From the NCBI RefSeq assembly GCF_003018115.1, contig NZ_CP027457.1: a stretch of DNA of 64,000 nt. One strand, given 5' to 3'. The DNA is from Escherichia coli. GTDB taxonomy: Bacteria > Pseudomonadota > Gammaproteobacteria > Enterobacterales > Enterobacteriaceae. The position numbers and the translations under genes were made by a program. The notes below the pieces were generated by a model. The model was given only the letters and a program-made list of their open reading frames with translations. It did no database searches and was not told the origin of the DNA. Every line of letters starts with the position of its first letter. Within the stretch, counting starts at the first letter, position 1. Shown here in pieces: positions 56,078 through 60,896 of the stretch.

Positions 56078-57646
56078 TTAGCGTGCCGGCTGAGTAGTCG
56101 TGGAAGACTGCTCAAAGTGATAGCGACCGGTTTTCAGGCTGCTTGGGCCGAGGCGTGCAAACTTGAACATTAAGAACAATTCTGCCACCAGGAACAGGGT
56201 ATACAGGCCGCAAATCAGCACCATCGAGAAGATGAGGTCGCCTGCGGTCAGCGACGAGTTCGCCACGGCGGTAGGCAGCACTTCACCGATAGCCCACGGT
56301 TGGCGACCATATTCGGCAACGAACCAGCCCGCTTCTACAGCAATCCACGGCAGCGGAATACCGTACAGCGCGGCGCGCAGCAGCCATTTTTTCTCGCCAA
56401 TGCGGTTGCGGATGACACTCCAGAAAGAGAGCGCGATGATTGCCAGCAGCAGGAAGCCACACGCCACCATGATACGGAACGCGAAGTACAGCGGCGCTAC
56501 ACGCGGAATGGAGTCTTTGGTTGCCTGTTGAATCTGAGCTTCAGTCGCATCAGCCACGTTTGGCGTATAGCGTTTCAGCAGCAGACCGTAACCGAGGTCT
56601 TTCTTCATGCTATTGAACTGGTCACGAACCGCCTGGTCGGTAGAACCAGAACGCAGTTGTTCGAGCAGAGAGTACGCCTTCATCCCGTTACGAATGCGTT
56701 CTTCATGCTGCACCATCAGTTCTTTCAGGCCGATAACTGGAGTATCCACGGAACGCGTTGCAATGATGCCCAGCGCGTAAGGGATCTGGATCGCAAATTT
56801 GTTCGTCTCCTCTTCCTGATCAGGAATGCCGAACAGAGTAAAGGCAGCAGGCGCAGGTTGCGTTTCCCACTCGGCTTCAATAGCAGCCAGTTTGGTTTTC
56901 TGCACGTCGCCCATTTCGTAACCAGATTCATCACCCAGAACAATAACAGACAGAACGGCAGCCATACCGAAGCTGGCAGCGATAGCAAAGGAGCGTTTAG
57001 CGAAGGCGAAGTCACGACCTTTCAGCATATACCATGCGCTGATACCGAGGATGAACATCGCGCCAGTCACATAACCAGACGCTACAGTGTGAACGAATTT
57101 CACCTGAGCAACCGGGTTAAGCACCAGCTCGGAGAAGCTCACCATCTCCATACGCATAGTTTCAAAGTTGAAATCGGACGCGATTGGGTTTTGCATCCAG
57201 CCGTTCGCAACCAGAATCCACAGTGCGGACAGATTTGAACCGAGCGCCACCAGCCAGGTGACACACATATGCTGAACTTTACCCAGACGATCCCAACCGA
57301 AGAAGAACAGACCTACAAAGGTGGATTCGAGGAAGAAGGCCATCAGACCTTCGATTGCCAGCGGCGCACCGAAGATATCCCCTACATAGTGGGAATAGTA
57401 AGACCAGTTAGTCCCGAACTGGAACTCCATGGTCAGACCGGTAGCCACACCCAGAGCGAAGTTGATACCAAACAACTTGCCCCAGAACTTGGTCATATCT
57501 TTATAAATCTGTTTGCCGGAAAGGACGTAGACCGTTTCCATAATGGCCAGCAGGAACGCCATACCGAGCGTCAGTGGCACAAAAAGGAAGTGGTACATCG
57601 CGGTCAAGGCAAACTGTAAGCGCGACAGTTCGACTATATCTAACAT
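56078..57646 (-). CDS. cydA: Cytochrome bd-I ubiquinol oxidase subunit I
   Basis: About 522-aa [31 protein letters not shown]... Confidence 0.95.
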
Positions 57647-57983
57647 CATGACTCCTTGCTCATCGCATGAAGACTCCGAGAGTGAACCCCGTTAGAAAGG
57701 GTCACACGCATGCCCCAATACAAAATTATTTGCTCGCCTCTATCGTTGCCATTTCATCAAAAGAGGAAAAGACAATGATAAAAAAGTTACAAATATGTTA
57801 ATGAATAAACCAAATTGATCCCGTAATTATATTACGCCGCAAAATCCTTACAATAAACAGGTTTTTATTGAGCAAATTTGCATTTTTCGACAGTGATCAA
57901 TTTATAGCGAAATTGTCACGATCTCACCAATTTGATCTACGACAATTTATCGTGTTTTGCAGATTTTTTTCAAGAATTAAAAA

Positions 57984-57997
57984 TTGATTTATATCAA
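57984..57997. promoter_or_regulatory. FNR-type box (TTGAT-N4-ATCAA) in the cydAB upstream regulatory region
   Basis: Perfect palindrome TTGATTTATATCAA about 340 bp upstream of the cydA start. Confidence 0.55.
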
Positions 57998-58451
57998 AAT
58001 CAACCAAATATGTTAATTATGTATAAACCATAGATCATTGGTGATTTTATTGTTAATTTATTGTGAAATATTTATGCAACACAATTATTACAATGAAAAG
58101 GTATAGATAAAAAACCAGTATTTTATTTAACAGAACCGCCTTATCCACTTTTTATAATACCAATTGATTAGAGTAGCCAATTTGTTGCTATTTTACATAA
58201 CATATTTTTATCAAAGTTAATTGATTGTTGCCTTTATGAGCACCGACCGTAAGCCCGTTATGTTATTGTTTCATTAGTAATAATCACTTAAATGTATCGA
58301 TGAAACAGGTATGACTTACCGGGAGTGATTGTTTCTGAGTGAACAGAGGCCACTTTCGCCTGATAAATGAAAAATGAGCGATTTTTGCAAGTTAGTTTTT
58401 CTATAGCCGAGTACGCTCAGCGCCTCGCTTGATTACAATGAGGTTGCTGCT

Positions 58452-59396
58452 ATGAGTCCTGATAATATCGGTTCGGCTGTCAATCGCTTCTCAGGTTGGC
58501 CATCTAATGATCCTCTAAAAACAGATGAAGAATCAATGACATCACCCGTGACTGTGCAAGTAATAAAGATGATTGCCGCCATCCTTGACCCACATCGGAT
58601 AGTCGGTGGAATTGATACACTTTATACAACGCAGCGCGAAACATTTACCTCAGAGAGTCAACAGCTCATTGAATCAGCATTGCAAACACTTCATGTGATG
58701 AATTTAAATAATCTGGAAACAAATCGCGATGAAGAAGGTCACTATCTGGCTTTTGAATATAACGTTGACACCTCTGACAGAATAACCGTTTCTGCTTATA
58801 ATGAAAAAAAGCCTGGCTGCTATGGCCAATGTCTTTTAATACAGGATGACGAAACAGACTTATTTAACCTGATAAAAATTAAAATTTTCGAAGCCAGGCA
58901 TAATTATGTCGCTCAATTGATGAGCGATCCGGAATTTATGTTCAAATTCAGTTATAGCGCTCAACAAAATAGATTAGAACCTCATCTTCTGGTTCCCGCT
59001 TATTTCCCTCTAAAAACAAACGAACCGGTTACGCAAGAGGATGTACTGTTACTTTATCGTTTCTTTAAAATGAATGATGATTTTAATAAATTAACATCAG
59101 AGGAATACATGAGTATCATGACTCCTCTGATGAAGTGTGAGCGTAGCGTCCACGACAACAACAGGTATGTGACGGGCAAAGATACCCTTCTTCTGGACTA
59201 TCCTCCTTCTGGTAACCAGATACATTTCCATATTTTCCCTGACGAATCAGCAACACTAGTCCTTTATTTTTCAAACAATGACCTTGAATGTTTCGTCTTT
59301 GAAAGAGATATTCCTAGCCAGTATCGCTTTTTCAAAATGTTTACCAATCTGGCACTGGTTATAGATCAGTTAACCGAAGCCAATAAAATACTTTAA
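58452..59396 (+). CDS. Hypothetical protein (314 aa), AT-rich, no family recognised; internal YRFFKM repeat
   Basis: Long ORF in a very AT-rich segment; motif LYRFFKMNDDF / QYRFFKMFTNL occurs twice. Confidence 0.55.
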   Translation: MSPDNIGSAVNRFSGWPSNDPLKTDEESMTSPVTVQVIKMIAAILDPHRIVGGIDTLYTTQRETFTSESQQLIESALQTLHVMNLNNLETNRDEEGHYLAFEYNVDTSDRITVSAYNEKKPGCYGQCLLIQDDETDLFNLIKIKIFEARHNYVAQLMSDPEFMFKFSYSAQQNRLEPHLLVPAYFPLKTNEPVTQEDVLLLYRFFKMNDDFNKLTSEEYMSIMTPLMKCERSVHDNNRYVTGKDTLLLDYPPSGNQIHFHIFPDESATLVLYFSNNDLECFVFERDIPSQYRFFKMFTNLALVIDQLTEANKIL

Positions 59397-59476
59397 TTTT
59401 CTATATATCCCTATGGCAAATATTGCTAAACAATGCCTGGGGATTAATTTTTATTACTCACGGAAAGATTTAAATA

Positions 59477-59899
59477 ATGATACCATCTCAGATCTCTTTC
59501 AATACCCTTCCAGTCAATGCAACATACGCTTCAGAGACAACAGTTGACACACAAAAATTCTCTGACATCCTCTACTCAGCGGGGTGTTCCCTAAAGGATA
59601 TGGCTTATCTGAGCAGATGTCTGGCATCAATACACCCGACTCTCGCCAAAAACATTTATGAAACAGAAAATCTCAGCGATCAAAAATTACTGCATATTGA
59701 TTGCCGTAGTACAAATGACATCAAGATAAATATCTTTTTTGGTCAGCAACGAGAAGGATTAATTGAAATTAGTTCTGACACAGTTATTTTTTCGATACTG
59801 TCTTCATTGATTGACTCCGCCATTTCTAAATTTCAACATCAAAACCCCGTTAACGGTTCAGTTAATCCTGAACTATTGTATGAGGATTATACTGATTAA
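59477..59899 (+). CDS. Hypothetical protein (140 aa), AT-rich, acidic C-terminus
   Basis: ORF 80 bp downstream of the 314-aa gene, same strand. Confidence 0.5.
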   Translation: MIPSQISFNTLPVNATYASETTVDTQKFSDILYSAGCSLKDMAYLSRCLASIHPTLAKNIYETENLSDQKLLHIDCRSTNDIKINIFFGQQREGLIEISSDTVIFSILSSLIDSAISKFQHQNPVNGSVNPELLYEDYTD

Positions 59900-60446
59900 A
59901 CCCACCCAGTCGCGAAAAATGGCCTGCGTTATTGCCAGACGTAATAAAACCGTTGATTAACGTTACTCATACTGGTAGCACCTTCATGTACCTCTCTTTT
60001 TTACGAAAAATCAAAAGAGCTAACTAAGGTCATAATTCGCATGAATCATTAACCATTTGTTATTTTCAACATTATTTTTACATTAAGCAGAGATGAATTG
60101 CAGTGAAATTCGACTTAAATCTTATGAAATGCATTTACTCATGGCTAAAACCACGTCACAAAAATGCAAATTAGAAGTAGATCACAATTATCTCAATACA
60201 TTAAATCAAGTTAATTTTAAAAATTTAACATTCATGTCATTAGTTGACATAACACACTGAATTAACATGGAAATTTAAAAACACACTTTAAACAATCATT
60301 TCCCGAAAGACATTTTGAAAATAGATCAATTGCAACATTACGGTCAGATAAAGACACTCCTGTGATATTAAACCTGTGCCGTTATGAACGGCCATAAATA
60401 CGACGTGTGTAACTTATTTTACTCTCTGTCTTACAAAGGATTACCC

Positions 60447-60896
60447 ATGAAGAAAGCAACACTTGTGATTGGCGTTATTGGCGCGGACTGCCATGCAGTA
60501 GGCAATAAAGTTCTGGACCGCGTTTTTAGCAACCACGACTTCAGAGTCATTAATCTGGGCGTAATGGTCAGCCAGGACGAATATATTGATGCTGCCATCG
60601 AAACTGGCGCTGACGCGATTATCGTCTCCTCTATCTATGGGCATGGCGATATCGACTGTCTGGGCATGCGCGAACGCTGCATCGAGCGTGGACTGGGTGA
60701 CATCCTCCTCTATGTGGGCGGTAACCTGGTGGTCGGAAAACATGACTTCGCTGACGTGGAAACCAAGTTCAAAGAGATGGGATTTGATCGCGTCTTTGCC
60801 CCAAGTCATGACTTAGAAGATGTTTGTCAGCTGATGGCCCACGATATCAATCAACGTCATGACGTTGATACTCGTATTCTTGAAGAGGCTATCTGA
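60447..60896 (+). CDS. glmS: Glutamate mutase sigma subunit (methylaspartate mutase S; B12-binding domain)
   Basis: [27 protein letters not shown]... with the DxHxxG cobalamin-binding signature; about 149 aa from internal ATG. Confidence 0.85.

Follow-up and report, generated by a model that had tools for sequence, protein, structure and literature searches.

AT-rich loci silenced by the nucleoid protein H-NS form a familiar category in Escherichia coli, with the enterocyte-effacement locus (LEE) and the cydAB promoter among its members; for cydAB, repression by H-NS with antagonism by ArcA is established (Govantes et al. 2000, as cited in PMC3708157). Equally well described is the methylaspartate cluster of glutamate fermentation (glm-mal-fumD), which is found in Klebsiella, Citrobacter, Enterobacter, Salmonella, Yersinia, Morganella and others, at least eight enterobacterial genera (PMC4682846). 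In the E. coli chromosome considered here (NCBI RefSeq assembly GCF_003018115.1, contig NZ_CP027457.1; the stretch analyzed, referred to below as the window, is 64,000 nucleotides long), cydA and the glm genes flank a pair of genes that the cluster description of Kronen and Berg does not include (PMC4682846): open reading frame (ORF) A, at 58452-59396, and ORF-B, at 59477-59899, both on the + strand, both starting with ATG, and encoding 314 and 140 amino acids (aa), respectively. These coordinates bear out the co-oriented two-gene unit proposed in a first-pass annotation that was made from the sequence alone. The 80-bp spacer between them (59397-59476, + strand) contains no predicted terminator, and the pair is, because of this, probably a bicistronic, co-transcribed unit; the terminator scan predicts none before glmS either, and promoter and terminator scans of the locus yield nothing above chance.

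The reading developed below is that ORF-A and ORF-B constitute a genus-restricted orphan operon, nearly silent in culture, probably through the action of nucleoid proteins, and retained in E. coli by selection for a conditional, plausibly intestinal, role. Taken as a whole, we judge this to be an evenly balanced proposition; its parts differ considerably in strength.

Orphan genes under purifying selection

Sequence and profile searches of Pfam, NCBIfam, PHROGs, PADLOC and PDB confirm no family for ORF-A or ORF-B. A word-indexed search of 5.8 billion clusters returns Escherichia/Shigella proteins and fragments only; a HMMER scan of 1.84 billion representatives with an ORF-A profile yields 14 matches, all of them fragments of ORF-A; GTDB species genomes and AFDB50 hold no homologues of either protein beyond Escherichia/Shigella. 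Every public source names both products "hypothetical protein". ORF-A and ORF-B are genus-restricted orphans, with no homologue beyond this narrow lineage after sensitive searching, and they are strictly chromosomal. The first-pass annotation had recognized no family and had called this the least explained coding DNA in the window; with all library searches empty, that description stands.

A mobile-element origin was considered and rejected: tblastn finds no phage copies of the two genes, and three matches among PLSDB plasmids are mislabelled chromosomes or a 730-kb fragment (the plasmid entries NZ_CP141089.1 and NZ_CP134663.1, both 4.9 Mb, and CP088669.1, 730 kb, carry the chromosomal locus). 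Two contigs of metagenome-assembled genomes, assigned to 'Collinsella sp.' (JAIJJM010000209.1) and 'Citrobacter sp.' (DXKH01000067.1), encode ORF-A and ORF-B at 93-95% protein identity together with glm genes that are 98-99% identical; these contigs are E. coli DNA, probably mis-binned or lying in misclassified bins.

Are these reading frames genes? Selection was estimated by the Nei-Gojobori method, with ORF-A compared among three E. coli allele groups and E. albertii. Every comparison puts its omega (the ratio of nonsynonymous to synonymous substitution, dN/dS) at 0.31-0.45, the lowest Fisher p being 7e-9; for ORF-B, omega is 0.16-0.55 within E. coli. Between E. coli and E. albertii, ORF-A differs at 218 of 945 positions with zero indels and zero stops; neutral simulations in which as many substitutions, of like spectrum, fall at random positions keep it open in 9 of 20,000 trials. 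When 57650-60446 is shuffled 2,000 times, the longest stop-free run has a mean length of 88 codons and a maximum of 216; runs of at least 140 codons occur in 1.2% of the shuffles, and runs of at least 314 codons in none. Selection thus acts on both reading frames, and there can be little doubt that these are real coding orphan genes. Because omega is significantly below 1, they are not pseudogenes in E. coli; they are fast-evolving genes under moderate purifying selection. The controls give the scale: omega is 0.006 for cydA, 0.01 for cydB, 0.05 for glmS, 0.07-0.2 for glmL and 0.02 for glmE, and the dN of ORF-A to E. albertii is ~100 times that of cydA.

The contrary proposition, that the ORFs are functionless relics hitch-hiking beside essential regulatory DNA and contributing nothing to fitness, can appeal to omega values that are high for bacterial genes, to the scarcity of transcripts in eleven conditions (see below), and to recurrent frameshifts, stops and deletions in E. 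albertii, Escherichia sp. MOD1-EC7003 and Shigella. It is decidedly unlikely in view of omega values that fall significantly short of 1, in both genes within E. coli and, for ORF-A, between species as well, of an ORF-A that has stayed open through its 218 substitutions in stop-prone AT-rich DNA, and of the depletion of ORF-B insertions in vivo according to CompTIS. The pseudogene remnants that the first-pass annotation had allowed for are also hard to reconcile with the E. coli carriers, since all 39 full-length sampled carrier rows have two intact annotated coding sequences.

The products are soluble, acidic proteins without known family (isoelectric points 4.75 for ORF-A and 4.65 for ORF-B), with no hydrophobic segment in either one and with N-termini rich in Ser, Thr, Pro and Asn (MSPDNIGSAVNRFSGWPSN and MIPSQISFNTLPVNATYASETT). 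Two features picked out at first pass are there as described: the acidic C-terminus of ORF-B (PELLYEDYTD), and the motif YRFFKM that occurs twice in ORF-A, at residues 202-207 and 291-296. Any exactly repeated 6-mer turns up in 327 of 200,000 shuffles of the ORF-A protein, which places p for the YRFFKM repeat at ~0.002; the two copies are loosely kept in E. albertii ORF-A, as FHFLQM and YRYFAM. The repeat, along with repeated strand-strand-strand-helix units in AlphaFold2 (AF2) models, suggested an internal duplication of ORF-A, or paralogy of ORF-A and ORF-B; BLASTP and hhalign show nothing of either kind (probability <=2.5%). Scattered weak matches of ORF-A to PD-(D/E)xK nucleases were also followed and rejected: P263-D264 is followed by E279-C-F, which is not (D/E)xK.

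The center of ORF-B (59630-59750, residues ~52-92) is 85-87% identical in nucleotide sequence to E. albertii, as against 60-67% at both ends of the gene, with a value of 84% also obtained for the core; in E. albertii, gene callers derive a product of 90 aa from it. Perhaps this core is the functional unit of ORF-B, or perhaps a conserved element of DNA or RNA overlaps it.

A small acidic protein encoded just downstream of a larger gene also invites comparison with type III secretion, and the first-pass annotation had mentioned an effector/chaperone pair: ORF-A or ORF-B would be a substrate of the type III secretion system (T3SS) encoded by LEE or of E. coli T3SS 2 (ETT2), and ORF-B would be its class I chaperone. 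ORF-B has the appropriate size, charge and position, the genes are AT-rich, lineage-restricted, fast-evolving and without Sec signal, the composition of the N-termini is suggestive, and T3SS-bearing O157:H7, O55:H7, O145, 042 and E. albertii are among the carriers. All the same, neither protein matches a CesT/SycE/Tir-chaperone or effector family (Pfam, NCBIfam and PDB profiles); the module is intact in LEE-negative strains, 042 for example; the effector column in Warr et al.'s S6 table flags neither gene; ORF-B decays while ORF-A persists; and the locus lies outside any prophage or exchangeable effector locus. The effector/chaperone reading is disfavored, and we consider it quite improbable.

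Near-silence in culture and a signal from the rabbit colon

The guanine-plus-cytosine (GC) content of the locus is 26-31% at 57700-58300, 34-44% over ORF-A and ORF-B, and 29-35% at 59800-60400, below the 49-59% of the cydAB and glm genes. At 36.7% GC, the bin 58001-60000 is the lowest of the 32 in the window, the others ranging from 41 to 55%, so that the compositionally foreign, AT-rich character noticed at first pass is real. The segment 57650-60450 is 100% identical to that of O169:H41 strains and 98.8-98.9% identical to that of O157:H7 and O55:H7. In published RNA-seq of EDL933, ORF-A and ORF-B score 0-5 reads per kilobase per million in eleven conditions. Two marks of xenogeneic silencing, high AT content and near-silence in standard culture, are both found here.

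The Himar1 transposon library of EDL933 (PMC6705877) provides a second view. Insertions are underrepresented in ORF-A (23.4% of 64 TA sites disrupted) and in ORF-B (25% of 28), and neutral in glmS (61.1% of 18), glmL (52.5% of 59) and cydA (56.5% of 62); a small ORF in the AT-rich spacer 3' of ORF-B has none of its 14 TA sites disrupted (0%). Hindrance of Himar1 by H-NS has been offered as an explanation for underrepresented low-GC divergent loci, one that its authors call unproven (PMC6705877). Because the deficit at this locus covers coding and non-coding AT-rich DNA alike and ends at the GC-normal neighboring genes, regional occlusion of the DNA appears to fit better than gene-specific essentiality.

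A third view comes from an hns mutant of strain 042, in which sense reads rise from 491 to 2998 for ORF-A and from 193 to 1349 for ORF-B, relative to wild type (PMC5861252 Table S1). (A technical note: libraries 2-4 of that table (hha hha2, hns, hns2) have ~3-4 times the wild-type reads on the antisense strand and on weakly expressed genes genome-wide; because of this library-wide inflation of low counts, raw fold changes at silent loci overstate de-repression.) On the whole we lean, without great conviction, toward silencing of the locus by nucleoid proteins.

What could two nearly silent genes be selected for? The one indication comes from the rabbit colon, where the log2 fold changes of ORF-B insertions are -6.04, -6.36, +0.2, -5.0, -0.81, -6.93 and -4.19, that is, -4 or lower in five of seven rabbits; with a glPC1 of -1228, ORF-B is classed as conditionally depleted (Group 2) by CompTIS. 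Insertions in glmS are neutral in the same setting (glPC1 +493), so the depletion of ORF-B is not a polar effect on glm. A role for ORF-A and ORF-B in the gut can be put forward tentatively. A bolder version, in which ORF-B, probably together with ORF-A, would be an unrecognized Escherichia-specific gut-colonization factor of novel fold, kept silent by H-NS during culture and activated in the intestine, must be called unlikely; if it is true, the CompTIS depletion in the rabbit colon is real and an orphan operon contributes measurably to the host adaptation of O157:H7 and the other carriers.

A number of observations weigh against an operon silenced by nucleoid proteins and selected for a conditional role. 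As to silencing, the lowered Himar1 density could reflect a fitness cost instead of DNA occlusion. The 042 data are single libraries, and in that of the hns mutant the two ORFs rise 6-7 fold, their glm neighbors 3.7-5 fold and weakly expressed genes generally 3-4 fold, leaving an hns-specific effect on ORF-A and ORF-B of at most about 1.5-2 fold. No H-NS chromatin immunoprecipitation dataset for a carrier strain was found, nor was protein-level evidence of ORF-A or ORF-B expression. As to the gut, Con-ARTIST calls ORF-B conditionally depleted in two of seven animals and its consensus is "queried", the stricter threshold having been failed; the depletion is an unvalidated, screen-level hint based on 5-7 insertion sites. 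ORF-A is not consistently depleted (-5.1, 0.48, -0.09, -4.0, -0.22, -0.4 and -2.26; glPC1 +38). As to function in general, the AF2 models are of low confidence (pLDDT 47 and 44) and allow no fold-level inference, and repeated decay outside E. coli indicates that the genes are dispensable.

Distribution, decay and the neighboring operons

The module is present in 1138 of 5426 complete E. coli genomes (~21%), including O157:H7, O55:H7, O145, O169:H41 and enteroaggregative E. coli 042. Layouts outside E. coli, taken from a species-representative scan and contig look-ups, show decay by frameshifts, stops and deletion. Three E. albertii genomes (L005-L007) have an intact 314-aa ORF-A, an ORF-B with stops at codons 36 and 135, and the glm genes; a fourth (L004) has an intact ORF-A of 314 codons, a 31-residue remnant of ORF-B, and no glm genes, with a 258-aa outer-membrane-like gene and then sucD following. 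In the E. albertii type strain (L013) ORF-A is frameshifted, ORF-B is not detected, glm is absent, and a remnant of the 258-aa gene is followed by sucD. In Escherichia sp. MOD1-EC7003 (L014) ORF-A has at least two frameshifts and ORF-B is a 47-residue remnant, next to an intact glmSLE. In Shigella dysenteriae there are fragments only.

The chromosomal site is the same in E. coli, E. albertii and Escherichia sp. MOD1-EC7003. The synonymous divergence (dS) of ORF-A to E. albertii is 0.52-0.59, that of cydA 0.26-0.29 and that of the glm genes 0.64-0.81. Three-species synteny and the dS of ORF-A together suggest that the locus is older than the split between E. coli and E. albertii, and that lineage-specific decay would have followed.

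K-12 carries mngRAB where ORF-A, ORF-B and glm are found here, and the sucD-cydA interval is a cargo hotspot: mngRAB in K-12, the glm island here, and the 258-aa gene in E. albertii. The product of the last of these (L004, 9907-10683) has a signal-peptide-like N-terminus and the look of an outer-membrane protein, with no Pfam match; in the type strain the gene is cut down (L013, 8829-9203).

The pattern of decay bears directly on the notion of a toxin and its antidote, which the first-pass annotation had entertained as a toxin/immunity pair: ORF-A would inhibit growth and the acidic ORF-B would neutralize it, as in toxin-antitoxin systems or as a cargo effector with its immunity protein. The order, large gene first and small acidic gene second, and the fast evolution of both have the right look. 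ORF-B insertions, and not consistently those in ORF-A, are depleted in the rabbit colon, while insertions in both are underrepresented in vitro; and the frameshift of ORF-A in the E. albertii type strain, where ORF-B is missing, could reflect selection against an unprotected toxin. Why, then, do four E. albertii genomes (L004 and L005-L007) keep an intact ORF-A without a full ORF-B? The antidote is not retained where the supposed toxin is. Moreover, both proteins, and not just the small one, are acidic; PADLOC, Pfam, PHROGs and PDB offer no toxin, antitoxin, immunity or defense match; a trafficking domain is lacking, and so is any linkage to a type VI secretion system, to contact-dependent inhibition or to a plasmid; and the Himar1 underrepresentation, reaching as it does into the non-coding AT-rich spacer (0 of 14 sites), points to a regional effect of the DNA. 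The toxin-antidote reading is disfavored, and in our estimation rather improbable.

The variability of the sucD-cydA interval could equally be seen as the setting of a novel pair of anti-phage defense or counter-defense genes, and a fast-evolving two-gene unit that is silent in uninfected cultures would suit that role. The module does not match anything in PADLOC, has no nuclease, ATPase or other enzymatic signature, has no phage or plasmid copies, and has resided vertically at one site in three species, unlike the rapid turnover typical of defense systems; a defense function is thus the least probable of the alternatives considered, and very improbable in absolute terms.

The AT-rich flanks of the two genes had been put at about 800 and 500 bp, and so they are: 802 bp on the left (57650-58451), and on the right 547 bp to the RefSeq start of glmS at 60447, or 484 bp to the ATG of the longest ORF at 60384. 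(The longest ORF would give a glmS product of 170 aa; RefSeq and the E. albertii alignment favor the start at 60447, with a product of 149 aa, MKKATLVI...) They are not the anonymous non-coding DNA that the first-pass annotation took them for: a good part of the left flank is the cydAB control region, and the glmS-proximal ~400 bp of the right flank contain what are likely to be glm promoter blocks.

The cydAB control region (~370 bp, 57650-58020, - strand) is backbone DNA outside the island; alignment with the K-12 mngB-cydA intergenic region spans only ~58020 to cydA. It is 88-100% identical to E. albertii, and 5425 of 5426 E. coli genomes have a match to some part of it. Within it, 57984-57997 agrees perfectly with the FNR consensus (TTGATTTATATCAA); the site is upstream both of the cydA start, by ~335 bp, and of ORF-A, by ~455 bp. 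Two further FNR-like sites, each with 2 mismatches, lie at 57887-57900 and 57932-57945. All three fall where the sequence is conserved in K-12 and E. albertii alike, and for that reason are presumably the known FNR operators of cydAB, which the divergent ORF-A might in principle share. This cydA-proximal region shows 80-90% identity in 3181 genomes and 90-95% in 1124, a divergence far above that of typical E. coli core DNA, which suggests old haplotypes tied to the alternative cargos of the sucD-cydA interval.

Beyond it, the AT-rich leader 5' of ORF-A (58021-58451, + strand) is specific to the island and has no homology to K-12; it is presumed to be the promoter and 5' untranslated region of ORF-A. 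It is 66-85% identical to E. albertii, rising to 93% in a 60-bp block (58370-58429) directly 5' of the ORF-A start, and a GAGG Shine-Dalgarno sequence stands 8 nt before the ATG.

On the other side, the interval from ORF-B to glmS (59900-60446, + strand) was profiled for conservation and aligned against E. albertii. Three blocks 5' of glmS (~60050-60110, ~60170-60230 and ~60290-60410) are 83-92% identical to E. albertii, and the DNA between them 42-67%; one of the blocks contains the near-palindrome TTTTGAAAATAGATCAATTG. Judged by their conservation, these blocks are likely to be the promoter/operator region of glm. The small ORF in this interval is not in current RefSeq and is interrupted in E. 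albertii. Rfam has no family in 57500-60600; glmS hence lacks an upstream cobalamin riboswitch, despite the B12 dependence of glutamate mutase.

With such neighbors, ORF-A and ORF-B might be an accessory or regulatory component of methylaspartate/glutamate fermentation or of cytochrome bd, and the first-pass annotation had indeed suggested a regulator pair and looked to growth on glutamate. Within E. coli linkage is almost complete (1138 genomes with the module vs 1131 with glmE); the module has the orientation of glm, with no terminator predicted before glmS; and ORF-A is divergent from cydA, with which it has a long AT-rich control region in common. Across taxa this co-conservation with glmS, glmL, glmE and mal breaks down: the glm cluster functions in many genera without ORF-A and ORF-B, and no relatives of the two were found in the other glm-bearing genera. 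The GC content of ORF-A and ORF-B is ~15 points below that of the glm genes. The two units also come apart in both directions, glm being intact beside decayed ORF-A and ORF-B in Escherichia sp. MOD1-EC7003 (L014), and ORF-A being intact where glm is missing in one E. albertii genome (L004). Cytochrome bd fares no better, cydAB being universal and the module confined to about a fifth of E. coli. The proteins have no detectable DNA-binding, sensor or enzyme domain, which weakens the regulator pair, and in vivo insertions in glmS are neutral while those in ORF-B are not. An accessory role for either neighboring operon is therefore about as improbable as type III secretion. ORF-A and ORF-B probably do not belong to the glm pathway; that they should be obligatory for methylaspartate metabolism is very unlikely, because relatives are missing from the other glm genera, base composition differs and loss and decay have been independent. 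The suggested link to growth on glutamate is unlikely too, the cluster existing in many genera without the pair.

The locus among known systems

The orphan-operon reading can now be put in terms of a mechanism. Coating of the AT-rich DNA by a nucleoid protein of the H-NS type would keep the locus nearly silent in culture; the products of ORF-A and ORF-B would act only upon de-repression, most plausibly in the gut. Of the two, ORF-A would persist longer, with ORF-B as a partner that may go missing. The likeliest role would be that of a conditionally expressed accessory factor, for a niche or for colonization, and the single screen-level signal makes ORF-B a candidate niche factor. Should the pair prove functional, it would cleanly exemplify an orphan operon that is old, restricted to one genus, maintained by selection in about one-fifth of E. 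coli and effectively invisible to laboratory transcriptomics; should no phenotype emerge, it would be one more silenced hypothetical-protein locus. On present evidence, the locus is an uncharacterized case of a familiar category, silenced lineage-restricted genes, and not a new kind of system.

How closely does it resemble its nearest described counterparts? Chaperone/effector pairs of the CesT-Tir type likewise set an acidic protein of ~140 aa beside a larger Sec-less gene in AT-rich DNA of T3SS host lineages; ORF-B differs from CesT in having no sequence match and, as far as the low-confidence AF2 models go, no fold match and a different predicted topology, and the pair differs in being kept by LEE-negative strains, in losing its small partner first and in lying outside the recognized effector repertoire. 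Effector-immunity and toxin-antitoxin modules have the same size asymmetry, the small acidic gene downstream, the fast evolution and, in vivo, the selective depletion of small-gene insertions; they are set apart by toxin or immunity domains that are lacking here, by the tolerance of a lone intact ORF-A in E. albertii, and by linkage to secretion systems or mobile elements, of which this locus has none. The enterobacterial methylaspartate cluster glmS-glmL-glmE-mal-...-fumD (Kronen and Berg 2015) is adjacent to the pair, co-oriented and almost perfectly co-inherited with it in E. coli; in other genera it travels without the pair, its base composition is different, and the two have been gained, lost or degraded independently in other species of Escherichia.

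The orphan genes of enterohemorrhagic E. coli come nearer: they too are confined to a single genus, expressed at low level, fast-evolving and dispensable in culture. ORF-A and ORF-B are much longer, at 314 and 140 aa, than the typical newly described ones, and they show clear purifying selection and synteny over three Escherichia species. With the H-NS-silenced AT-rich loci of E. coli, LEE and the adjacent cydAB promoter, the pair shares a GC content of 27-44% against a backbone of ~51%, near-silence in culture, a Himar1 density lowered over the whole AT-rich segment, and raw reads that are highest in the 042 hns mutant (in a single library with inflated low counts). The locus differs in that its binding of H-NS is inferred; and, with no mobility gene, tRNA or repeat boundary, it appears to be old and vertically inherited, not recently acquired.

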